Of a stretch of DNA of 21,898 nucleotides, positions 239-13,105 are shown in pieces; position 1 is the first letter of the stretch, and every line of letters begins with the position of its first letter. Location: NCBI GenBank assembly GCA_038999435.1, contig JAVZYR010000011.1, forward strand, positions 1-21,898, written 5' to 3'. The stretch is from Candidatus Aenigmatarchaeota archaeon. Its GTDB lineage: Archaea > Aenigmatarchaeota > Aenigmatarchaeia > QMZP01. A program made the position numbers and the translations under genes. The notes below the pieces were generated by a model. That model was not told the origin of the DNA and made no database searches. It was given only the letters and a program-made list of their open reading frames with translations.

Positions 239-3200
239 ATGGCAAACAAAAGGCCAAACAAGGTTTATGCATATGCAGTCATATTATTTTTAGTTTGTTT
301 TGTTTTCCTATTTACAACCTTAACGGGCTACATGGCTGGCTATATAGAATATGTCAGTCTTTCAAGCGATTTCCCAGACATAAACTTTCAAGAAGTAAAC
401 AGGGAATTGATGGCATTCAGCAAGGACAATGTAGCAGTTGAGCTACAGGGACCGAGGATTGCTGAGAATAGGATAATAAGGGTTGTACAGGATACTGTTT
501 ATGTAAAAGGTATAGATTTTGATTCAGCAACTGTTTATGTCGAGCATGGCCCGCTTGGAGCCGTATACACAATTCCAAGTATTTACTATTGTGCTGATGC
601 GGATTTTGACCCTGACACAATGCAGTGCGCAGATTGGCAGGTCCTGACAGAGAAAAAGGTTATTGAGGTATGCGAAGGACAGACTATAGGAGAGGAAGGA
701 TTAACAGAAGAAGTTATTGAAGGTGTGTCTATACCGGAAACAGAAGAAGCTGAGCAAATAACCCAAACTGAGGTGCAAGAGACAGAGGGTTTAGAGGAGG
801 TCGAAGGCATGCAAGGGCCAGAGCTGACAGGAGAATTGATTGGCATGGAATGGCAGGAAGAGAGCGGAGCTGAAGCCATGACTGAGTTTGAAGTAAGCAG
901 TGAAGAGAGGGCTGGTTGTAAAAACATCACTATTGATGTGCCTGTGAGACCGCAGTTTAACGAAAGTCATTACTGGTTTTCTGTCGCGCACTTCACTGCA
1001 TATTATGTCAACTCATCGGGTGGGGATTTCCCAAACATCACTGCATGTCTTGATGCAATCAACGAAACAGGCGATAGTTGTTATATAAACGAGCCAGGCG
1101 AGTATGTGATAGAGAATGAAACATATTACTCCATCTCAGATCCTGATGGTGATGGCGTGATAAACCTTGTTGCTGATGATATTATCCTTGACTGCAATAA
1201 CTCGATTATAGAACGAAAATTATTTTACAGAAATGATACAGGTATATTGGCAAAAGACAGAAACAACATAAAAATCCAAAATTGTATTGTCAGAAATTAT
1301 GACTATGATGTGAATGTAACAGGTTCTGCTTCATGCAGCTTGATGTCAAATAACATTAAAAATGCCTACTTTACGAACTCTGAATTGTGCAATTTGTCAT
1401 CCAATACATTTTGGAATGCCTTTATCACAAATTCACAGGGCTTTACACTTACATCAAATAATATCAGTGACAACTTGCGCATTTCAGGGGATGACATAAT
1501 CTATTACAATCACGCAATCGACCTGAGCAATCTTCTCAATGGCGGTCTGATTTACTATAACCTTTCTGTTTCTGATTATATATATTCAGGGCTGACAGCA
1601 AATTGGCTCGTCTGTGTTAATTGCAGCAACATAAGCATTGTTGACAGCAATATCAGCCATCAAGGAATATTCCTTGGCTGGACAAATACAAGTTTGATTG
1701 CCAACAGCACAGGTACATTTTGGGGCAGTAGCGAGACAGGAATAACACTTTTCAGGAGCAGGGATGCTGAGATTTCAAATTACAGGTCTGGTAATATATC
1801 AGCAATTGGTTCAAGCAGTCCAAACCTCAGCTTTTTCAGGTATGGCATTCTTTTGAATGAGAGCATTAATGTAAGCATAAAGGATGATACCCAACTTGCT
1901 TATGCCTATCTAAACTATACTCCGGGTAATATCATCAGCTATATTCTGTATCTTGTGAACAGCAATAACACCATCATCAACAATGTAACAGCAAAGGGGT
2001 GGCAATTAGAAGGTTCTTTTGAAAATACATCCATATTAAAGCTTGTGAATTCACACAACAACAGCATAAATAGTTCATATTTTTACTACAGTGCATCCAG
2101 TACAATTATCATAAATATGACCAATTCTTCTGACAATAACATATCAAATTCTAATATAATTACAGCAGGCTCTGGAGCTTGGGCTAAAGGGATTGCGCTC
2201 AGTATGTCAAATTCGCACAGGAACGTATTCACTAACAACATAATACTGGGTAAAAATTCGCATACTGGAAATCAGTTATCACCACTGCCAGGATGTGCAC
2301 AGATTGCTTATTCGCAAAACAACACATTCATCAACAACAGCATGGAAGGTACTTATGGTGCTTATTGGGCTGCAGGTGCTATTTATGTCACAAATTCACC
2401 AAATACCATATTTATAAACAACACGATAAACTCTTCATACAGTTCAGCTGTTGCATGGGACCTGCCAACAATCAGGTTTTCTTCTTCACCTGGATGTGTG
2501 ATGGAAGGAAACAATCTAAGCAGAACCAGTTCAATAGGCGTAATGATAGAAAATTCAGGCAACCTTACACTCTTGGGAAATAACATAAACCGTTCAGTTG
2601 TTGGTGGTCTTGTCATTCGAGGTTCTTCATTGTCACATTATCTGCACACAATTTCTTCTGACAACCTTGTTGGAGGAAAGCCTGTTTATTACAATCATTC
2701 AATATCAGACCACATCTTCTCAGGCCTTGACGCAGACATGATTGCCTGTGCAAACTGCAGTAACATAATCATAGAAGACAGCAATGTTAGTCGGGATGGC
2801 ATAAGGTTGTGGTGGACAAATCACAGCCTGATAAACAACAGCTTTTCAAATGATACATGGGAAGGTATGGTGCTTTACAAGTCGCGAAACATAACAATGA
2901 TGAACAACCAGATAAATAAAAGCAGATATAGAGGCCTATCAATCACTGGTGATACAATAGAAGAGGTTTGCCACACAATCGACACAAGCAACCTTGAGGA
3001 TGGTGTTCCAATACAGTATGCATGTGGTCAGAGCGATTTAGTATATGAAAATCTTGTAATTCCGTATCTTGCCTGTGCAAACTGCACAAACCTTATAATC
3101 AGGAATTGCACATTTGCAAATGGAACAGGTCTGAATATATGGTTTTCTGACAATGCATCTATCTATAACAACACATTTGACAATTTCAAGATGATATCTC

Positions 3201-6200
3201 TTAAAAATCATACCTGCAATGTCTTTGAAAACAATACAATAAAATCTCAGTCCATAACAGCGCCTGGCGCTAATTTCATAACGCAGAATAAACTTGTATT
3301 TTCAAACATAAGTTCATGCAAGATATACAACAACACTATATATTCCTCTGCATCTGAATTCATAGGCACCAACAGTCTTGTTTTAGAAAAATCAAGTGGA
3401 AATCTCATAGATTCGAACAGGCTCATTGGCCTTCGTTGCCATGGCATACTTCTGTCTTCTAGCCCAAACAACACAATCTCCAATAACATTGCAAATACAA
3501 CAATTCCAATCGGCGGTAGTTGTTATGGTTTTTATTTGTCATCACAATCTAACAATTTAGTAGTTTACAACAACACAGCCATTGGGGCAACAACGACAAA
3601 TGCAGCAGGGTTTGGTTGTGGTTCAAGCAATAATCTCAACATATCTTTCAACAATGCAACCAAAAACTACTATGGCTTCTCAATAAATGGATGTCAAAAT
3701 TCAAACATAACTGATAATGTTGCTAATAACAATACTGCCACAGGATTTGTGATTTTTACTGTCTCAACTGATACTAAAATAGCAAATAACAATGCAAGCT
3801 CCAATTCTTATGGCTTTTCTTTTTCTTCCCCAGGCCTTATTATAGAAAACAACACAGCTGATAACAATACCTATGGCTTTACTGTGGCAGCGGCAAACAA
3901 CCTTACCAACAACACAGCCGTGGGCGGAACTTTGGGTTTCAACATATCCTTTACAGCTCCAAACTCAAACCTCACAAACAACACAGCGCTCAAATCTACT
4001 TATGGCTTTTATATTTCAGCCCAAAATACAACACTTGTTGGCAACATAGGAGAGAACAACTCATATGGCTTTTATTTATCGGAAAGCAGTAGTGGCAGTG
4101 TGCTGAAGGGCAACACGGCAAAAAATAGCACAAGCCAAGGTTTTAGTTTGTATTATACGAAAAACGTAACACTTGAGGACAACATAGCAATAGGCATACC
4201 TCGGGGTATATATACATTTAATACAACTGATGCAAAAATTCACAACAGCAACATCACGGGATGTGACTGGAGCATTGTGCTTGGAAATTCTTCCAATATC
4301 ACAATGACTGATAATATCGTCACAGATAGTAAATATTATGGCATTTTTGTTAATGGAAATGCACCGTATCACTTTGCCCACACAATCCCAACATCAAATA
4401 CAATCAATGGCAAGCCTGTCTATTATAATCATTCGCTATCCAATTATGCCTTTGATGGGCTTGATGCAGGTCATATAGAATGCGCATTCTGCAATGGCGT
4501 GAACATAACAAATTCACAGGCAATTGGTGATGGCATAATCCTGCGCTTCTCAAACAATAGCAGGATTGAGCAATGTGATGTTTCAACAACATATAGTTCG
4601 CTTTGGGGCTATAAGCTTGAAAACACCTCAATAAACAATTCTGTATTTAATTATAATTCAAATATTGAATATTCTAACAACACATTCATCTCCAACTCCA
4701 CCTTCCAAAACTCCTCAACAGATCTCCGTATCTTCCGTGTCAACAACACCTTCATCTCCAACTCCACATTCCAAAACGCCTCAAGAGGCCTTTCTGTTTC
4801 TTCTTCCAACAACACCTTCATCTCCAACTCCACATTCCAAAACGCCTCAACAGGCCTTTATGTTTCCTCTGCCAACAACACCTTCATCTCCAACTCCACA
4901 TTCCAAAACGCCTCAACAGGCCTTTATGTTTCCTCTGCCAACAACATCTCAATTGATACAAGTAGATTTTTAGACAGCGACAATTGTATCTTTGCATCAC
5001 CAAAAACAGGTTTCTTAACAAATTCTAATTTCAGCAACTGTATCACCTCCACGATAACAGGAAGTTGGCAAGATTCAAACATAAGTGGTAACAAGATTGA
5101 AAATTGTGGAGAGAGTGTGGTTTCACTCACGGTTAATAATTCAATAATATCATATAATAACATTTCAAATTGCAGTTCAACAGTAATAATAATACATTTA
5201 GACGGGAGTGGGATTGAGTTTTCTAATAATATATTCGAAAATAGTTCAACCATGGATTATTTCGTGGATTTGGCAGTTAGTCCAACAACAACATTAACAA
5301 ACAATGTGAGAAAGAACTTATTTAGAAACATAACAGCCCTTGTCATATTATATATCGAAAATAGTCAAAATATAAGTGTGGAGGATAATGAATTTATTAA
5401 TAACACAGCCAGCAGTATACTTACACTTTGGGCAGTAACTAATAGCACGTTCTCTGGAAACTATTTCAATAACAGCCCTGATAGTGTAGATTATTCAATC
5501 GTGATTGGGGATACTGACACCACTAACAATGTTTTCCATCACAACTACTTCTACAATAGCAGTATTTTACATGCATTTGCAGAAGAGCCAGGCAATCATT
5601 TCAACATCACAGGCTCTGGTGCACAGGGCAATTACTGGGATGACATAGGCAATCTGCAAATATATGATATCGATGGCGATGGCTATGGCGACAGTGGGCC
5701 TGATTATCCATATTCAAATGCAACAGGCGGGCGGGTCAGCCCAAATGTAGTTGACTGGGGCCCGATATTGGAAGAAGATGTGACGCCACCACAAATTACA
5801 ATCATCTCACCTGAAAACATTACATATTGCTCATCATCGCTATGGGCAAACATAAGCTGCAATGAGCCATGTAATTGGGCTGGATATAGCCTTGATGGAC
5901 AGCCAAATGTCAGCATGTCCAGTACTGATTACTGGAATTGGTCAGCATATTTAACAGGCTTGTCAAATGGTCAGCACAATATCACATTCTGGGCTAACGA
6001 TACATCAGGGAATATGAATCAGTCCGATTATGTGTGGTTTAGCATTGACATCTCTGGCCCGTACTGGTCTGGCAATATCACAGCACCGGCAAGCCCAACC
6101 ACATATCAACCAGGTAAAAACTATCAATTCAATATCACTTGGACAGACCCAAACAGCATCGACACAGCGCTTATACGCGGAAACTTCACAGGCACGATGC

Positions 6201-8059: not shown

Positions 8060-9526
8060 CTATAGATCAGGAAACCAAATAGTACACCCTGCTGGAGAAG
8101 TGTCCTTGTTTTGGTTTTGGTCTATAGGCGTGATTATAAAGACCTCCCATCCATATATAGTGATAGGAATCTCAAATGTGCAATCAAATCTTTCTCTTAT
8201 TCCTAATGGGCCACATCTTTCTATAAGCTCGTTATCTGTAAATGATTTTATAATGAGATTATCAATTCTTGCAAACTCTAATGTTTTAACACCCCACACA
8301 CCATTGCAAGGATATTCAAAGTTTGTATTTAAAGGATTGAATATATCATTTTCTGCAGAATAGTAGTCCCAACAATCCCCATCTATTGGTGTGCAGTGTA
8401 TTTGGATAACTGTGTCAAATGGATAATTTGGCAGTTCGCTTGAAAAGAATGGGGCATCATACGCACAACGTTTTGTTATACCATTTATCGTTACTTCACA
8501 AGGTCTTAACTGGGAATATCCAAGCAAATAAGAGGGTATATTGACTGTTTTCAAGGAAATAATTTTTTCTGACATGCCTGCACTATTTTTTGCCCAAAAC
8601 TTAAATTTGTAAATGCCGAGGTCACCATTCTCATTAAAAGGAAAGTATACATAAAGTTTTTTGCCATCAGCCACATAGTTGCCTTCCATTGTCTCATAAA
8701 GGGTGGGGTCTTCTGTAACATTTTCCCAACCATATTCCTCTGCCACACCAATTATATCTGCTTCGATGTTTGTCTGTTCATTCCTGCAAAAATAGGCATC
8801 GGCATCTGTGAAATAAAGGGTATGAATATATCCACAAAAACTTGATTTTAGGTTTTTTATTTCAACTTCAGGTGGGTTCAGTATACATGCACCATTTTCG
8901 CATTGGTCTGGGCAAACGTACTCTGTGCTGCTTGCAAGGTTATCTTGGCAGAACCATTCTGTTAATGTATTACCTTCGCAAGAATCTGTATGGCTTCCGT
9001 AGTTATCAATGGTGGTTCCGCTTACATCATAGTTCAAACCACCATCTGTATCTGTGCAAAAAGGTTCAACAGAGTTACCATCCATAACATTTATTAATTG
9101 ATCATCTATAGCAGTTCTGTTCCTGCTATCCTGAATAAGCAACTTTGCAGTATATTCACCTGGATTTGTATATTCATAATCAAATGCAGCATAGCCATTA
9201 TCAGCGCCTGATACGTCCTGATAGTTTTTTGCAATACCATTTATTGCTTTGTTTAAATTACCCTTGCAATTTGTAAAATCAACCACATCATCCCCATTAA
9301 CATCCCAGTATCTACATAGTTTTTTATATTCCTCTTCAGAAACCGGGGAACAATCTTCAAAATGAACCTTTAAGGGAACTGTTCCTTTAACAGGGCTTGC
9401 ACATATCTCTGCATTCAGATTGTCATTATTGTTGTTATTTGGTTTTCCACATGATGAGAAATACAATGCTAGCCCAAACCCTAAACCGATTAGTGTATTT
9501 TTAAGATACTTTCCAAGGTATCTCAT
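8060..9526 (-). CDS. Putative lipoprotein with PKD-like domain and Cys-rich CTDTDGG module
   Basis: Signal peptide ending in lipobox-like FSSC, then a poly-Asn linker. PKD-like motifs G.VPL.V.F, YWD.NGD and YEYTNPGEYTAKL. CTDTDGG...DSC.GNTLTEWFC...CP..CENGAC is a Cys-rich module common in archaeal extracellular proteins. Confidence 0.75.
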   Translation of the reverse strand: MRYLGKYLKNTLIGLGFGLALYFSSCGKPNNNNNDNLNAEICASPVKGTVPLKVHFEDCSPVSEEEYKKLCRYWDVNGDDVVDFTNCKGNLNKAINGIAKNYQDVSGADNGYAAFDYEYTNPGEYTAKLLIQDSRNRTAIDDQLINVMDGNSVEPFCTDTDGGLNYDVSGTTIDNYGSHTDSCEGNTLTEWFCQDNLASSTEYVCPDQCENGACILNPPEVEIKNLKSSFCGYIHTLYFTDADAYFCRNEQTNIEADIIGVAEEYGWENVTEDPTLYETMEGNYVADGKKLYVYFPFNENGDLGIYKFKFWAKNSAGMSEKIISLKTVNIPSYLLGYSQLRPCEVTINGITKRCAYDAPFFSSELPNYPFDTVIQIHCTPIDGDCWDYYSAENDIFNPLNTNFEYPCNGVWGVKTLEFARIDNLIIKSFTDNELIERCGPLGIRERFDCTFEIPITIYGWEVFIITPIDQNQNKDTSPAGCTIWFPDL

Positions 9527-9587
9527 CGTATTATAATTTTGAAATGGTATTTAAAAGCTTTTTGAGCATCATTCCAATTAAATTTAT

Positions 9588-9895
9588 GGGCCCGTAGCTC
9601 AACTGGATAGAGCATCCGGCTTCGGACCGGAGGGTTGGGGGTTCGAATCACCGCTCTTTAGAGCTACCGCTTCAGGCTGTTGCCCACTTTGGTCGGTCTG
9701 TTAAAGTGGGCTTTGCAAGCTGAGCGGTGGAGCAGAAACCACCTGCAGGGCTCTTTAGAGCTACCGCTTCAGGATAGCCTATTGCCCACTTTGGCCAATC
9801 TGTTAAAGTGGGCATTGCAGGTATAGCGTGGAATAGAATTAGTTCACAAAGGTATCAAAAACTTTTATAAAAAGGAGAAAATCCTCCCGGGCCCA
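9588..9895 (+). tRNA. tRNA-Arg(TCG) with a 234-nt insert/intron in the T-loop (position 58/59); exons 9588-9646 and 9881-9895
   Basis: Joining the exons gives a 74-nt cloverleaf: GGGCCCG/CGGGCCC acceptor, GCTC/GAGC D-stem, TCCGG-CTTCGGA-CCGGA anticodon arm (TCG at 9622-9624), GGGGG-TTCGAAT-CCTCC T-arm, discriminator A. The junction can slide within the shared AATC. No encoded CCA. Confidence 0.9.
9653..9838 (+). repeat. Two diverged ~90-nt structured direct repeats inside the tRNA-Arg T-loop insert
   Basis: GCTCTTTAGAGCTACCGCTTCAGG at 9653 and 9750 (offset 97). Each is followed by TTGCCCACTTTGG-N4-TCTGTTAAAGTGGGC (GCCCACTTT/AAAGTGGGC stem) and a GCG(G)TGGA..AGAA end. Confidence 0.92.
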
Positions 9896-9913
9896 TTTTT
9901 AAATCTTCTTAAA

Positions 9914-10027
9914 GATGGGCAGCGTGCTGGTTTTCCCGCCCGAAGGCAGTACACACCAGTACGTGGAGGAGTTTAACTTCCGTGTTCGAAATGGGAACGG
10001 GTGAACCTCCTCGCTTTGGCCGCCCAA
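9914..10027 (-). rRNA. rrf: 5S rRNA, not linked to 16S/23S in this window
   Basis: Reverse complement reads TTGGGCGGCCAAAGCGAGGAGGTTCACCCGTTCCCATTTCGAACACGGAAGTTAAACTCCTC...GTACTG..GGGAA..CGCTGCCCATC. It has the 5S signature CCC.TTCCCATT.CGAACAC.GAAGTTAA and the closing helix TGGGCGGC/GCTGCCCA. Ends are approximate by a few nt. Confidence 0.95.
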
Positions 10028-10045
10028 TATATGATTGAGTTTTAG

Positions 10046-10075
10046 ATTTATAAAAATTTGCAAAATCTTTAAAAT
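10046..10075. promoter_or_regulatory. Back-to-back TATA-like boxes for 5S rRNA (-) and tRNA-Asp (+)
   Basis: ATTTATAAAAA (10046-10056) lies ~25 nt upstream of the 5S 5' end on the minus strand. CTTTAAAAT (10067-10075) lies ~25-30 nt upstream of the tRNA-Asp start. Confidence 0.55.
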
Positions 10076-10097
10076 AAAAAGTCCATTATTTTTATAT

Positions 10098-10205
10098 GCC
10101 CAGGTGGTGTAGTGGCCTAGCATAAGGGACTGTCAGGGCTTTTTAAAGGATACAGAAAAAGCCTGCAGAGCTCCCTTGACCCGGGTTCAAATCCCGGCCT
10201 GGGCG
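10098..10205 (+). tRNA. tRNA-Asp(GTC) with a 35-nt canonical 37/38 intron (10136-10170)
   Basis: GCCCAGG/CCTGGGC acceptor, AGGGA-CTGTCA^C-TCCCT anticodon arm, CCGGG-TTCAAAT-CCCGG T-arm. BHB: central helix CTGT/GCAG, bulges CA^G and AG^C, inner stem GGCTTTTT/AAAAAGCC. Confidence 0.95.
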
Positions 10206-10235
10206 TGAATTTATTTAATCTTGACAAAATTAATT

Positions 10236-10406
10236 ATGTTTAAAAAGAGAAAGAAGAAAGGGAATGATGCAGAAGGCATAGCATTTGTGGCATTCTTTTT
10301 TGTTGGCATGGCTATTGGTGCGGTTTTTGGAAGATGGGATGTGGGCCCGTTTCTCGGTTTGGCATTAGGATTCCTTGCAATGTTGTTCGTGCTTAAAGGC
10401 AAATAA
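10236..10406 (+). CDS. Small membrane protein (56 aa, two hydrophobic Gly-rich segments)
   Basis: ATG at 10236. Basic N-terminus, then GIAFVAFFFVGMAIGAVFG and VGPFLGLALGFLAMLFVL. Fills the gap between tRNA-Asp and marC. Confidence 0.7.
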   Translation: MFKKRKKKGNDAEGIAFVAFFFVGMAIGAVFGRWDVGPFLGLALGFLAMLFVLKGK

Positions 10407-10408
10407 AA

Positions 10409-10993
10409 TTAATATCCAAACCTTTCTAACAATCCTTCAATACCTCTAAAAATAAATTCAACTGCCATCGCAGCCAATAAAAAGCCTGTTACTCTTGATA
10501 AAATATCTAAAATATCATCGCCAAACAGCCTTTGTAAAAGTTCAGAATAGTGAAGCATGAGCCATGTTATAACTAAAACAAGCATAGAAGCAAGAATAGG
10601 TATGAAATAGCCATAATGCCCTGCTAAAATAACTATCGTCGTCATTGCCCCAGGCCCACATAAAAGGGGTGTGCCTATAACAATCCCTTTCATTTGTTTT
10701 GATGATTTGTTAATCCCGATATTCAGAATTGTTTGTATGCCCATGATAATCAATATCAGACCGCCTGCGATCTGAAATGCAGAGAAGCTTATCTTCATGA
10801 TGTCTAATATAATTACACCTAAAAACAGGAAAAATAAAAGCAGTCCACCCGCAACACTTACAGCGATAAATGCTTCTTTTGCCTTTCTTCTTTGGCTATA
10901 CCCTTTTGTTAACCTCAGAAATATCGGTATACTAAGAAATGGATCTATGACTATAAACATCGTTACAAATGATATGAGAAATTCTGAAAGCAT
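10409..10993 (-). CDS. marC: MarC-family integral membrane protein
   Basis: F.VIDPF..IPIFL.LT, G..IL...ISF.AFQIAGG.IL, PLL.GPGA.TT and R..G.LLAA.AVEFI..G motifs; about six hydrophobic segments. Confidence 0.93.
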   Translation of the reverse strand: MLSEFLISFVTMFIVIDPFLSIPIFLRLTKGYSQRRKAKEAFIAVSVAGGLLLFFLFLGVIILDIMKISFSAFQIAGGLILIIMGIQTILNIGINKSSKQMKGIVIGTPLLCGPGAMTTIVILAGHYGYFIPILASMLVLVITWLMLHYSELLQRLFGDDILDILSRVTGFLLAAMAVEFIFRGIEGLLERFGY

Positions 10994-11092
10994 GTATATT
11001 TTTAGTCATAATAAAATAAAGCCGTGTTGTGGTTATCAAAGCTTTATAAATCTTTGTATCTAATTTTTAATCATATTCATTACTTTTTGGTA

Positions 11093-11104
11093 AAAATTTA
11101 TAAA
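11093..11104 (+). promoter_or_regulatory. TATA-like box upstream of the HD-domain gene
   Basis: AAAATTTATAAA ~25 nt upstream of ATG 11125, compatible with a leaderless transcript. Confidence 0.5.
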
Positions 11105-11124
11105 TCTTTATGTCATTTTTATTT

Positions 11125-11952
11125 ATGGTAACATACCTTGTAGAATCTGGAAAAAGAATTTTGGATGAGATTTTGGCAGGCGGTAATATAAAGGATGATA
11201 TACTAGCAAATACTCCGCTAATAACCTCTATAAAAAATAGCATTGGAGCCAGGGCTGATATTTTAAAAGATTTTGTTGCATACAGCACTGAAGTTGATGC
11301 TATTTCAAAAATGTTAAAAGAGAATGACAGCTCTACTGCAGAGCATTCATTTGGGGTTGCTGAGATATGCGATGGTATGGCTGGATATCTTAATTTAAAC
11401 AGGGCAATTGCAAAAAATTCAGGTTTGTATCATGATTTCGGAAAACTTTTCATACCTGAAGGGATTAAAAATCAGGAGATGAAAACAGGAAAGGACATAG
11501 AGCCATTCGATTTGGAATTTGTTAGATATGGTCATGTTCTCATAGGCGAGGTTCTTGCAGTTCTTGGTGAGGTTGATGAACATCTTAAATATGCAATGGC
11601 ATACCATCATGATAAAAGAAATCATAAAGGCTATCCACATAAGGTATTCGAACTTCCAGATGAGACAAAGGCACTTCAGGTTGCTGATGCTGTTCAATAT
11701 AAGAATATTGTAAAAGTTGCAGATGTCGCACATGCTCTAACAGATAAAAACAGAAAAAATATGCAATGGTATAGAAGGAATGGTGTAGATATACAAAATA
11801 AATATGATGTTTTTGGTTTTTTAATCAAAGGTGTCTATGAAGGAGATTTTGAAGAAAAGTATGTCAATGCCTATCTAAAATTTGCAGGGCTTAAAGAGGA
11901 TGAAATAAAGGAGCTATATAGATTAAAAAGACCTGAAACAAACTATTTTTAA
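11125..11952 (+). CDS. HD-GYP-like metal-dependent phosphohydrolase
   Basis: T.EHS..VA, GLYHDFGK, H..IG..L, YHHDKRNHKGYP (variant of HHExxDGxGYP) and IVKVADV.HALT. Start placed at ATG 11125 (alternative 11110) from TATA spacing. Confidence 0.85.
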   Translation: MVTYLVESGKRILDEILAGGNIKDDILANTPLITSIKNSIGARADILKDFVAYSTEVDAISKMLKENDSSTAEHSFGVAEICDGMAGYLNLNRAIAKNSGLYHDFGKLFIPEGIKNQEMKTGKDIEPFDLEFVRYGHVLIGEVLAVLGEVDEHLKYAMAYHHDKRNHKGYPHKVFELPDETKALQVADAVQYKNIVKVADVAHALTDKNRKNMQWYRRNGVDIQNKYDVFGFLIKGVYEGDFEEKYVNAYLKFAGLKEDEIKELYRLKRPETNYF

Positions 11953-12119
11953 TGCATAGCTGTTAGCTTGCATGGATGGGCCCGTAGCTCAGCCAGGTTT
12001 GGCAAAACCCTGAAATGGTAGAGCACCGGGCTTTTAGCATCGGCTAAAAGCATGTTGAGGTCTGTTAAATCAGACCGATGGCAGAAAAGGTTGCATACCC
12101 GGGGGTCGCGGGTTCGAAT

Positions 12120-12213
12120 GAGCCCTTTCTTTCAAGAAGAAAGCGCTCGCGGAAAGAAGGAGCTAACCGCTTCCGATTTCAGAGCCTTTCTTTCAAGAAG
12201 AAAGCGCTCGCGG
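12120..12213 (+). repeat. Two ~32-nt hairpin direct repeats in the tRNA-Lys T-loop insert
   Basis: GAGC(C)CTTTCTTTCAAGAAGAAAGCGCTCGCGG at 12120-12152 and 12182-12213; each folds GAGC..CTTTCTT/AAGAAAG..GCTC. Confidence 0.92.
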
Positions 12214-12273
12214 GCACGCTTCTCCTGCTCCCAACAGAAGCGTGCGAGTAAGAGGGAGCTTACGCTTCCAGAG

Positions 12274-12402
12274 TGGAAGCGTTGTGGAGCGAAGCGAAAC
12301 AGCTCCCGGATGGCTGGAAACCTTGAGGGTTTCCAGAATGGAAGCGTTGTGGAGCGAAGCGAAACAGCTCCCGGATGGCTGGAAACCTTGAGGGTTTCCA
12401 GA
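12274..12402 (+). repeat. Tandem duplication with a 65-nt period (64 nt identical) in the tRNA-Lys T-loop insert
   Basis: TGGAAGCGTTGTGGAGCGAAGCGAAACAGCTCCCGGATGGCTGGAAACCTTGAGGGTTTCCAGA at 12274-12337 and 12339-12402. Contains hairpins GGAGC/GCTCC and CTGGAAACC/GGTTTCCAG. Confidence 0.95.
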
Positions 12403-12421
12403 GAGAATCCCGCCGGGCCCA

Positions 12422-13105
12422 TTAAAATATTTTCAAAATTTCACCTAACTCAGAAACTTCATAATCAGCCTTTCCTTGTTTATTTTTATATTTTCCTTTT
12501 AGAATGCGAATCCCGGTCATCCCAACATTCATCGCACCCTCAACATACTCTGGCCTGTCATCGCAGTGAGCAGCATTGCAGGCATAAATACCCATACTCT
12601 CAAGGGCTATTTTGTAAATTTCTGGTTCTGGTTTTTGGTAGCCAACGCGCTCAGAAATTATTACATATTCAGGTCTAAAAAAACAGTCAAGTTCGAGTAA
12701 AATAAGTTTATACCATTGTTTTTTTGTTATGCCATTGGATATTATGCCAAGTTTAACATTTTTTGATTTTAGCTCATCAAGGGTTTTTTTCACATCAGGA
12801 AATGGTTCAAGCTCAACAAATTTTTTCAAATGATATCTATAAACAGCACTCATCACTGCAGGATAGAATCTCGGGTCTTGTTCCGAAATACACAATCTTT
12901 TCAGCACATCATCAAAGAGCAAGTCATGGTTTGAGCCATTTTCGGAAAGCACAGCTTTTGTTTCATTTTTTAATTTTTCCATGTCTATTTCAGGGAAATA
13001 TTTTTGAAGTTGCTCAAGTCCGGTCAATCTTGCGTTTTCAGAAAAACCCGTACTATCATACAATACATCATCAATATCAAGGAATATTCCCTCTATCCTC
13101 CCCAT
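12422..13105 (-). CDS. HAD-superfamily hydrolase (subfamily IA, archaeal TIGR02253-like)
   Basis: Motif I FLDIDDVLYDS, PFPDV..TL..LK, motif II IISNG...KQW.KL, motif III KPEPEIY, motif IV CDDR...V.GA..VGM. Start placed at the ATG ending at 13105. Its stop abuts the tRNA-Lys 3' end. Confidence 0.92.
   Translation of the reverse strand: MGRIEGIFLDIDDVLYDSTGFSENARLTGLEQLQKYFPEIDMEKLKNETKAVLSENGSNHDLLFDDVLKRLCISEQDPRFYPAVMSAVYRYHLKKFVELEPFPDVKKTLDELKSKNVKLGIISNGITKKQWYKLILLELDCFFRPEYVIISERVGYQKPEPEIYKIALESMGIYACNAAHCDDRPEYVEGAMNVGMTGIRILKGKYKNKQGKADYEVSELGEILKIF

Follow-up and report, generated by a model that had tools for sequence, protein, structure and literature searches.

A tRNA-Lys gene interrupted by three inserts

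The window analysed here is a 21,898-nucleotide (nt) stretch of DNA from a Candidatus Aenigmatarchaeota archaeon (contig JAVZYR010000011.1), and its forward strand carries a tRNA-Lys(UUU) gene (11978-12421) that three inserts of 23, 60 and 289 nt break into four exon pieces. Introns make up 372 of its 444 nt, or 84% of the gene. From 11978 onwards a standard 5' acceptor strand is followed by a D stem and an anticodon stem-loop (anticodon TTT, 12033-12035). The 3' exon (12408-12421) holds T60, the 3' strands of the T stem and of the acceptor stem, and the discriminator base A73 at 12421. A TATA-like box (11944-11953), 25-34 nt upstream of the tRNA 5' end, is the putative promoter, judging from its sequence. 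The intact gene is missed by both ARAGORN and the Rfam tRNA model. In-silico removal of 11993-12015, 12037-12096 and 12119-12407 leaves a 72-nt tRNA-Lys(ttt) that ARAGORN recognises as a regular cloverleaf. The 289-nt insert is located inside a tRNA gene, and the canonical cloverleaf is restored on its removal.

The 23-nt D-loop insert (11993-12015, boundaries approximate) is a hairpin with an unclear central helix; D-loop introns ending GAGC-AT^T (^ marks the splice site) occupy the matching place in other tRNAs of the genome. The 60-nt insert of the anticodon loop (12037-12096) was placed after position 37 from the sequence and from the ARAGORN removal. By eye, a strict bulge-helix-bulge (BHB) motif is not formed at its 3' junction. 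This insert opens with a perfect 9-base-pair (bp) hairpin that takes in the anticodon.

Parts and fold of the 289-nt insert

In the T arm, TTCGA(A) precedes the longest insert and (A)TCCCGC follows it; the insert has 54% GC, the remainder of the window 39%. An earlier note on this DNA, made from the sequence alone, had described an array of hairpins in this T-loop, and the insert, its repeats, its hairpins and a 65-nt duplication are all found where it placed them. Where exactly does the insert begin and end? Because AT stands at both junctions, it can be written as 12118-12406 (between tRNA positions 58 and 59), 12119-12407 (59/60) or 12120-12408 (60/61), three frames that are indistinguishable by sequence in tRNA-Lys itself. 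We use 12119-12407.

We divided the insert into six modules, defined by their coordinates in the Lys intron and mapped in the genome allowing a few mismatches, so that it reads t[A][C]gatttca[A'][B][T]agagt[D][E]aat[D][E]agagaa. It follows T-loop positions 54-59 (TTCGAA, 12113-12118), of which 54-57 are the predicted exon strand of the central helix and 58-59 the first two nt of the 5' bulge. The first copy of module A (12120-12152) starts one nt past the 5' splice site and consists of a 12-bp hairpin with one mismatch plus GCGG; the second (12182-12213) is one C shorter. Module C (12153-12174) joins a purine linker to a tail hairpin, which we call hpT (GGAGC-UAACC-GCUUCC). Modules B and T (12214-12269) form a two-hairpin element: a 10-bp stem closed by a conserved 12-nt loop leads through a linker to another hpT. 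Modules D and E are present twice (12275-12336 and 12340-12401). The first copy plus the 3 nt after it (12337-12339) is the 65-nt repeat unit, and in the second copy hairpin E abuts the 3' strand of the central helix. The 3' splice element AGAG-AA (12402-12407) ends the insert. Its AGAG can pair at three of four positions with T54-G57, and its AA together with T60 (12408) would form a 3-nt 3' bulge adjoining the T stem.

Tandem Repeats Finder (TRF) reports the 65-nt unit 2.1 times at 12266-12402 with 98% matches, and 12124-12152 recurs exactly as a 29-nt direct repeat at 12185-12213. The 10-bp hairpin of module B pairs 12214-12223 with 12236-12245, a 9-bp stem lies at 12262-12282, and the 23-nt hairpin units at 12314-12336 and 12379-12401 are each preceded by GGATGG. 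GAGC occurs at 12160, 12256, 12287 and 12352. Folded together, the T arm and the insert reach -139.4 kcal/mol; 100 dinucleotide-shuffled versions average -108.0 +/- 6.0, none of them as stable (z = -5.25). The minimum-energy structure retains the T stem and a helix of TTC with the 3' end of the intron.

Register of the T-loop introns

The ambiguity of the junction was addressed with the other T-loop introns of the same genome. In 25 introns we counted pairs across the central helix of a BHB motif, whose exon strand is the tetramer lying two nt short of the exon end and whose intron strand is the tetramer lying two nt short of the intron end. Frame 59/60, in which exon TTCR faces intron positions n-5 to n-2, gives 83 of 100 possible pairs and eight perfect helices among the 25 introns. 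No other frame yields a single perfect helix, and the pairs drop to 48 of 100 for 57/58, 57 of 100 for 58/59 and 34 of 100 for 60/61. By this measure the T-loop introns of the genome lie between positions 59 and 60, and not at 58/59 as the earlier note had it when it took exon GTTC for the pairing tetramer.

The intron tetramer tracks the exon, CGAA going with TTCG and TGAA with TTCA. Short introns of 11-19 nt form clean helix-bulge-helix-bulge-helix (hBHBh') or helix-bulge-helix (hBH) motifs; one of 19 nt, for example, consists of one bulge nt, a 4-bp stem, a 4-nt loop, TGAA, and then CA^T. So framed, the introns have the T stem as outer helix, and T60 completes the 3' bulge as its third nt. 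Thirteen introns, that of tRNA-Lys among them, share an end module and finish AGAG-AA^T, which gives three pairs and one G-A or A-A mismatch. The Lys junction, with its outer helix, its 3-nt 3' bulge and a central helix of three pairs in four, would be a relaxed and not a strict form of the motif. The insertion point that had been proposed as common to tRNA-Lys and tRNA-Arg is borne out: the 234-nt insert of tRNA-Arg lies at the equal place in the T-loop and ends GAGA-AA^AT.

One long intron or a row of short ones?

Could the insert be many introns instead of one? The earlier note had read it as a row of short BHB introns in tandem, each cleavable on its own against an equal exon tetramer, removed stepwise, and added by insertion at splice sites. 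The terminal hairpin, tetramer and two nt do have the form of a BHB 3' end. CGAG-TA at 12245-12250 and CGGA-TG at 12307-12312 and 12372-12377 are internal sites that pair at four of four positions with TTCG in the 59/60 frame. Units of the array are complete introns elsewhere, A+C in D-loops of this genome and B+T in T-loops of relatives. Sequential cutting would also be mechanically feasible, because the 5' exon remains base-paired to the 3' exon.

Enrichment of splice-site tetramers behind stems, which such a row predicts, is nevertheless not seen. Among maximal stems of at least 5 bp, a GTTC-complementary tetramer (G-U allowed) follows 1 of 46 stem ends (background 4.9%, P = 0.90) and a TTCG-complementary one 7 of 46 (background 6.3%, P = 0.024), three of the seven being second copies from the 65-nt repeat. 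Stems of at least 6 bp were taken at full length or one bp shorter, so that the 28-nt units of the earlier note qualify; here the GTTC tetramer is found after 3 of 32 against 1.57 expected (P = 0.21) and the TTCG tetramer after 1 of 32 against 2.0 expected (P = 0.88). Beyond the repeat copies, neither frame exceeds background. A strict hBHBh' scan of the whole precursor returned 36 motifs against 50.7 +/- 10.3 in 200 dinucleotide shuffles, a comparison that is weakly informative given its permissive thresholds and its failure to pick up the outer site with three pairs in four.

The individual sites tell a similar story. Of the 28-nt units proposed as BHB introns, the last keeps its fitting 3' end, whereas the internal copy (12314-12341) pairs at only one of four positions in the frame favoured by the other introns. 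All four GAGC motifs, once suggested to be further splice ends of the form GAGC-NN^A, are hairpin arms. At 12160 and 12256 they supply the 5' arm of the conserved hairpin GGAGC-UNAC-GCUUCC, which shows compensatory changes in relatives, and at 12287 and 12352 that of a local GGAGC/GCTCC hairpin. Module order is fixed and not random, and a nested insertion inside module B of one relative forms, by eye, no BHB with its flanks. What stands of the tandem idea is that the units occur as introns at other loci; for their separate splicing within the array, the enrichment and motif scans offer no sequence support. We regard a row of individually cleaved introns as decidedly improbable, and the insert is most likely removed in one piece.

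A family of related introns across the genome

Is tRNA-Lys an oddity of this archaeon? Its genome assembly (549 kb in 30 contigs, 86% complete, from a hot-spring metagenome) yields 10 tRNAs when given to ARAGORN untouched, and many of its Rfam tRNA matches end at model position 63-64. We scanned it with a script that requires TTCRA after a T-stem strand, the partner strand at most 800 nt downstream, and a matching acceptor stem. From 237 raw hits, GC-rich tRNA-like candidates were picked by eye, and with three more from other searches they give 36 tRNA genes, a collection that is not exhaustive. Inserts at 59/60 are present in at least 27 of the 36, an approximate count since the census depends on a TTCRA T-loop and on the by-eye choice of GC-rich candidates. 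Twenty-five of these inserts are complete and two are cut by a contig end; nine genes have none. The complete ones measure 11, 14, 16, 18, 19, 35, 38, 89, 109, 111, 112, 117, 117, 118, 124, 144, 163, 177, 178, 178, 205, 234, 255, 289 and 306 nt. After removal at 59/60, ARAGORN recognises 31 of 33 tRNAs.

This census bears on whether the Lys gene is alive at all. Its unusual size and weak central helix could be taken to mean that the gene is dead, or that the insert is removed without ligation to leave a two-piece tRNA; nothing beyond these two features speaks for it. Joined together, all exon parts still make a perfect cloverleaf. The 36 genes include no second recognised tRNA-Lys, several multi-intron genes among them not being reliably typed. 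Inserts of this kind are present in three quarters of the detected tRNA genes, and endonuclease and the ligase RtcB are both encoded (see below). A dead or two-piece gene is thus extremely unlikely.

Modules of the Lys intron are present in 17 of the 25 complete T-loop inserts at 85-100% identity. Their order is constant, with A first, B/T in the middle and D-E last; 13 of the 25 inserts end in D-E, and the shortest module-bearing T-loop intron reads A - 10 nt - D - E (109-112 nt). The 178-nt T-loop intron of tRNA-Pro(CGG) reads A - F - D - E; compared to it, the Lys intron is longer, has A and D-E duplicated, and contains B+T. A BLAST search of the insert against the genome returned 72 segments at 21 loci with 85-100% identity, all in tRNA genes except C8:369-527. 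By BLAST and by the module map alike, closely similar intron sequence is therefore shared by tRNAs of different identity within one genome.

Modules are not confined to T-loops. Two tRNAs carry [A][C] or [A] as a D-loop intron. The BLAST locus outside tRNA genes belongs to the 23S rRNA gene (C8 ~320-530, minus strand, locus L017), in which a 211-nt insertion, placed by the Rfam archaeal large-subunit rRNA (LSU) model aligning on both sides, occupies a hairpin loop near model position 181. It reads [A'][C]...[C'], and its hairpin A has two compensatory pair changes at the base. By eye, no convincing BHB motif was recognised at the D-loop, anticodon-loop or 23S junctions. A second module family, which includes an hpT-like motif, fills the 59/60 intron of tRNA-Arg(TCG) (9588-9895, forward strand); there a unit of about 100 nt stands twice, with a 53-nt core at 81% identity and a 24-nt block at 100%. 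Several other tRNAs use this family as well, and further members lie in an intron of an anticodon loop (C4) and at the two ends of contig C16.

A separate tRNA (C3:7178-7275, Rfam 48 bits) seems to hold an insert of about 22 nt in or next to the 5' strand of its T stem, and not at 59/60.

With so many near-identical copies, can the internal arrangement of the Lys intron be trusted? Public short-k contigs from four DNA runs of one hot-spring study were compared with 11800-12600. They come in pieces of 51-77 nt and break throughout 12097-12420, where repeat depth is tens of times that of the flanks, and the contig joints around the insert match other paralogous introns. Module order, the second A and the 65-nt duplication might then be partly an assembly artefact, short reads having been threaded through more than 20 near-identical copies; indeed each Lys sub-arrangement also exists in another tRNA gene. 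On the other side, the acceptor and T-stem halves that flank the insert match each other uniquely, and long inserts made of modules turn up again at 17 loci, as they do in relatives known from separate records. The earlier note had proposed raw reads as a check of the 65-nt duplication. The duplication as a whole is unbridged by the short-k contigs, and a 53-nt contig with one mismatch covers the internal E-to-D junction. We consider an artefact of this kind unlikely.

Splicing enzymes and a proposed pathway

Which enzyme could process such a precursor? The catalytic domain of the tRNA splicing endonuclease (PF01974) is encoded at the start of contig C7 (C7:3-215, E = 2.8e-17), and homologues were found in 12 of 12 relatives searched, with open frames of 394-421 amino acids (aa) among them. 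A relative's 394-aa protein (L066:838-2022), 75% identical to the fragment from our genome, carries the Pfam N- and C-terminal endonuclease domains and matches PDB 4fz2, the epsilon2 endonuclease of ARMAN-2, over residues 10-394 (E = 1.8e-99). Micrarchaeota-labelled records contain homologues at 51-58% identity. RtcB is encoded at C15:747-2054 (E = 1.5e-171). Since the 394-aa protein matches PDB 4fz2 end to end, the lineage is assigned, on protein similarity, a broad-specificity three-unit endonuclease of the epsilon2 type (ARMAN-2 type), and it has RtcB as the ligase. In several relatives there is also another endonuclease-like gene, shorter than the first, whose open frames span 184-265 aa.

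We consider it probable that the tRNA-Lys(UUU) gene is functional and that the 289 nt in its T-loop are one long, endonuclease-dependent archaeal intron at 59/60, with a body that is a concatenate of modules. The cleavage sites, the order of events and the fate of the excised RNA we infer as follows. In the precursor the T stem would serve as the outer helix, and T54-R57 would pair with the four intron nt ahead of the last two (AGAG, three of four). The three-nt 3' bulge would consist of AA and T60, and the 5' site of A58-A59 and the first intron nt. The first hairpin begins right past the 5' site and the last ends at the central helix, so that the stacked string of hairpins might stand in for the inner helix and produce a relaxed hBH-type motif. 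The epsilon2-type endonuclease would cut the two outer sites, and RtcB would join the exons and probably circularise the intron too. The modules would derive from a repeat family that occupies removable parts of stable RNAs (introns of T-, D- and anticodon loops, and a 23S loop) and that shifts in length by tandem duplication, deletion between short direct repeats, and exchange between loci.

Several points weigh against this interpretation. The central helix of the Lys junction is weak (U-G, U-A, C-G and a G-A mismatch), and the minimum-energy fold pairs TTC with GAA two nt away from the proposed register. The 5' site is within a multi-helix junction and not in a true bulge, so that no strict BHB is formed; the D-loop and anticodon-loop inserts of the same gene are likewise, by eye, devoid of a clear BHB. 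Module order and copy number are those of the assembly. For window positions 9000-13000 no RNA run is listed, the four DNA runs of the hot-spring study being the only ones. The endonuclease gene of this genome (C7:3-527) is cut by the contig end to a 174-aa C-terminal fragment, and the count of 27 in 36 carries the approximations of the census.

Origin of the 65-nt duplication

The earlier note had the array growing by repeated insertion of introns and by duplication. The duplication is there and growth by adding units is a reasonable general idea, yet the 65-nt copy does not call for an intron insertion. Its E-to-D junction carries an 8-nt microhomology, TTCCAGAG, which is common to the module E/intron 3' end and to the loop of the first hairpin in module D. 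Because the junction falls on this microhomology, unequal recombination between two TTCCAGAG sites would account for the duplication. The tRNA-Ser(CGA) gene has a matching E-D-E arrangement, and its E-to-D junction, as in tRNA-Lys, is the one that unequal recombination predicts. Both D copies share one variant base in Lys and the other base in Ser. This single diagnostic site suggests that the Lys and Ser duplications were separate events or that copies were homogenised within each gene.

A two-hairpin element inside and outside introns

Only insert positions 97-153, corresponding to B+T (window 12214-12269), match other genomes, namely 7 of 40 relatives searched. With a sequence-only model of the unit we found it in 20 of the 91 genomes of the order, the present one counted: 8 of 46 in family f1, 11 of 23 in family f2, and 0 of 21 in the other four families. 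In a sample across the phylum 12 of 151 genomes contain it, none beyond f1 and f2. Copy number reaches 10 per genome.

The contexts of these copies are diverse. Eight loci are T-loop introns at 59/60 and one is a D-loop intron; one copy lies just upstream of a tRNA 5' end and three directly past tRNA 3' ends, as trailers. Six more, all in relatives (L055, L063, L044, L059, L062, L047), are intergenic and lie a few nt downstream of TATA-like boxes. The TATA-adjacent copies are placed as if they were the 5' end of a transcript of their own or the leader of the next gene. At one further locus (L043, G051:C16) a B+T-like copy seems to stand in frame just past the start codon of an open reading frame (ORF); the copy may have inserted into a coding gene, or the start may have been wrongly called.

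Covariation was measured on 30 model-derived matches (26 distinct rows) with a two-hairpin structure of 15 pairs. Of the cells, 91.3% are paired, against 83.2 +/- 0.8 with partners shuffled (0 of 500 shuffles reach it). Two-sided changes occur at 6 of the 15 pairs (5 of 500 shuffles), and the covariation score is 0.199 against 0.081 (0 of 500). Related sequences can beat shuffles without any structure, and we therefore put weight on controls with partners slid by 1-3 columns, in which 41-59% are paired, and on the double changes, among which are two tail-hairpin pairs that switch from G-C to U-A, and four versions of the outer stem in hairpin B. The MAFFT alignment used (A1) mis-registers the outer stem of hairpin B in the rows of the present genome, so that the pair counts understate pairing. 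By these comparative measures both hairpins of B+T covary.

The tail hairpin hpT has the form GGAGC, a loop of 4-5 nt UNAC(C), and GCUUCC with one bulged U. Besides B+T it closes module C and the long module F, and it occurs in the second module family; about 33 strict copies were counted in this genome, all within tRNA or 23S inserts. In three relatives (loci L009 of G022, L010 of G039, L050 of G030) module B contains extra hairpins. In the second and third of these genomes a related third hairpin, followed by TCGAAAGTT, lies between the two conserved hairpins.

Do these units live a life of their own? The modules, above all B+T with hpT, may be independent elements, either small RNAs of a new family or selfish mobile DNA, that settle in whichever portion of a stable-RNA precursor is removed and have the intron as carrier; this would be compatible with the single long intron proposed above. 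The spread over f1 and f2, the presence of as many as 10 copies in a genome, the presence in introns, tRNA leaders and trailers and after intergenic TATA-like boxes, the covariation of both hairpins, and the confinement of the strict hpT copies of this genome to stable-RNA inserts favour such a view. Searches for a function, a target or a mobility mechanism, in contrast, detected none. An Rfam 15 scan of 9550-12450, with hits examined up to E = 10, gave only 5S rRNA and tRNA as significant, everything else having E of at least 0.96 and scores far below gathering. Mobilisation of the IS200/IS605-derived kind, as palindrome-associated or miniature inverted-repeat transposable elements (PATE/MITE), was rejected, for Y1 transposase (PF01797) and TnpB (PF07282) are found in none of five module-bearing genomes that are 86-95% complete. 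A guide-RNA role for the B loop was likewise dropped, there being no target of 10 nt or more in rRNA or tRNA of this genome; complements of the loop are scattered 9-13-mers in its other DNA. The two sequence subtypes may also reflect one ancient split, which would make some of the covariation counts non-independent, and modules A, D and E as such were absent from the 40 relatives. We hold independent elements to be possible, at less than even chances.

A more specific proposal remains speculative. The hairpin units could represent an undescribed class of Aenigmatarchaeota elements (variable hairpin, purine linker, hpT) that ride as tandem passengers in all discarded parts of stable-RNA precursors, from tRNA leaders and trailers to introns of D-, anticodon and T-loops and a 23S rRNA loop. 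Enzymes of tRNA processing would set them free as small RNAs that are stable, possibly circular, and have their own function or means of mobility; the T-loop arrays would then be passengers and not splicing signals.

Two further structures in this region were considered and given up. In some relatives one-sided changes preserve a pseudoknot in module B (loop GCUCCC with tail GGGAGC); in others its pairing is lost. The second structure is a helix in which the linker would pair with the 5' arm of B. Joint changes occur at columns 10, 27 and 42 of a second alignment (A2), which two old subfamilies suffice to explain.

Comparison with known systems

The nearest known system is that of ARMAN-2, whose epsilon2 endonuclease cuts a relaxed 59/60 motif of pre-tRNA-Cys in vitro (PMC3239211, PMC3488258). 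ARMAN-2 resembles the present lineage in the 59/60 position, in a relaxed hBH-type junction such as we propose for the Lys intron, in a homologous three-unit endonuclease and in having many disrupted tRNA genes. Its in-vitro substrate, however, measured 13 nt, whereas the Lys intron has 289 nt and is modular; and unlike in ARMAN-2, about three quarters of the tRNA genes in our genome contain a 59/60 intron. A 2018 paper lists epsilon2 for Micrarchaeum and relatives only (PMC5829648), while the lineage described here belongs to Aenigmatarchaeota.

Near-identical intron sequence in tRNAs of different identity and position within one genome has a parallel in the 'large-scale intron transposition' of Thermoproteales (Fujishima et al. 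2010, via PMC4090602, bioRxiv 10.64898/2026.10.13.758758). In contrast to Thermoproteales, the units shared here are hairpin modules below the size of an intron and vary in number; they are also present in 23S rRNA and, in relatives, in leaders, trailers and stand-alone positions, and the host belongs to DPANN.

The intron of Haloferax tRNA-Trp hosts a C/D box small RNA (sRNA). In a similar way, the Lys intron contains a structured, conserved RNA unit that splicing could release. Read for RUGAUGA and CUGA boxes, the Lys intron has neither, nor does it match an Rfam family.

Introns at 59/60, the epsilon2 enzyme (ARMAN-2) and the copying of introns among tRNA genes (Thermoproteales) were thus known before. 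To these we add a genome-wide count, a corrected register, a negative test of tiling, a microhomology origin of the duplication, modules in 23S rRNA, an epsilon2 enzyme in Aenigmatarchaeota, and a covarying two-hairpin element that is present inside and outside introns in two families of the order. In open-access papers and bioRxiv we found no description of modular T-loop introns or of the B+T element.

What do these findings mean for archaeal tRNA genes? Standard finders see 10 tRNAs where at least 36 are present, so that, for lineages like this one, genome annotations and claims of 'missing tRNA' genes in DPANN archaea can be badly wrong. The picture of the protein-spliced intron is stretched as well, to about 290-300 nt without an ORF, in a gene that is 84% intron and has an array of hairpins in place of the inner helix. 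How archaeal introns arrive is still posed as an open question in a preprint (bioRxiv 10.64898/2026.10.13.758758). The present genome records intron growth and spread unusually clearly, in modules shared by tRNA and rRNA genes and in microhomology junctions. The two-hairpin unit, occurring inside and outside introns, is a candidate for a new family of small RNAs or mobile elements.

Other features of the window

A 5S rRNA gene (9914-10027, minus strand) is located 19 nt downstream of tRNA-Arg on the opposite strand, and tRNA-Asp (10098-10205) has a 35-nt canonical intron. At 4676-4946, a 66-nt tandem repeat is present 4.1 times with 90% matches, probably in a coding region.

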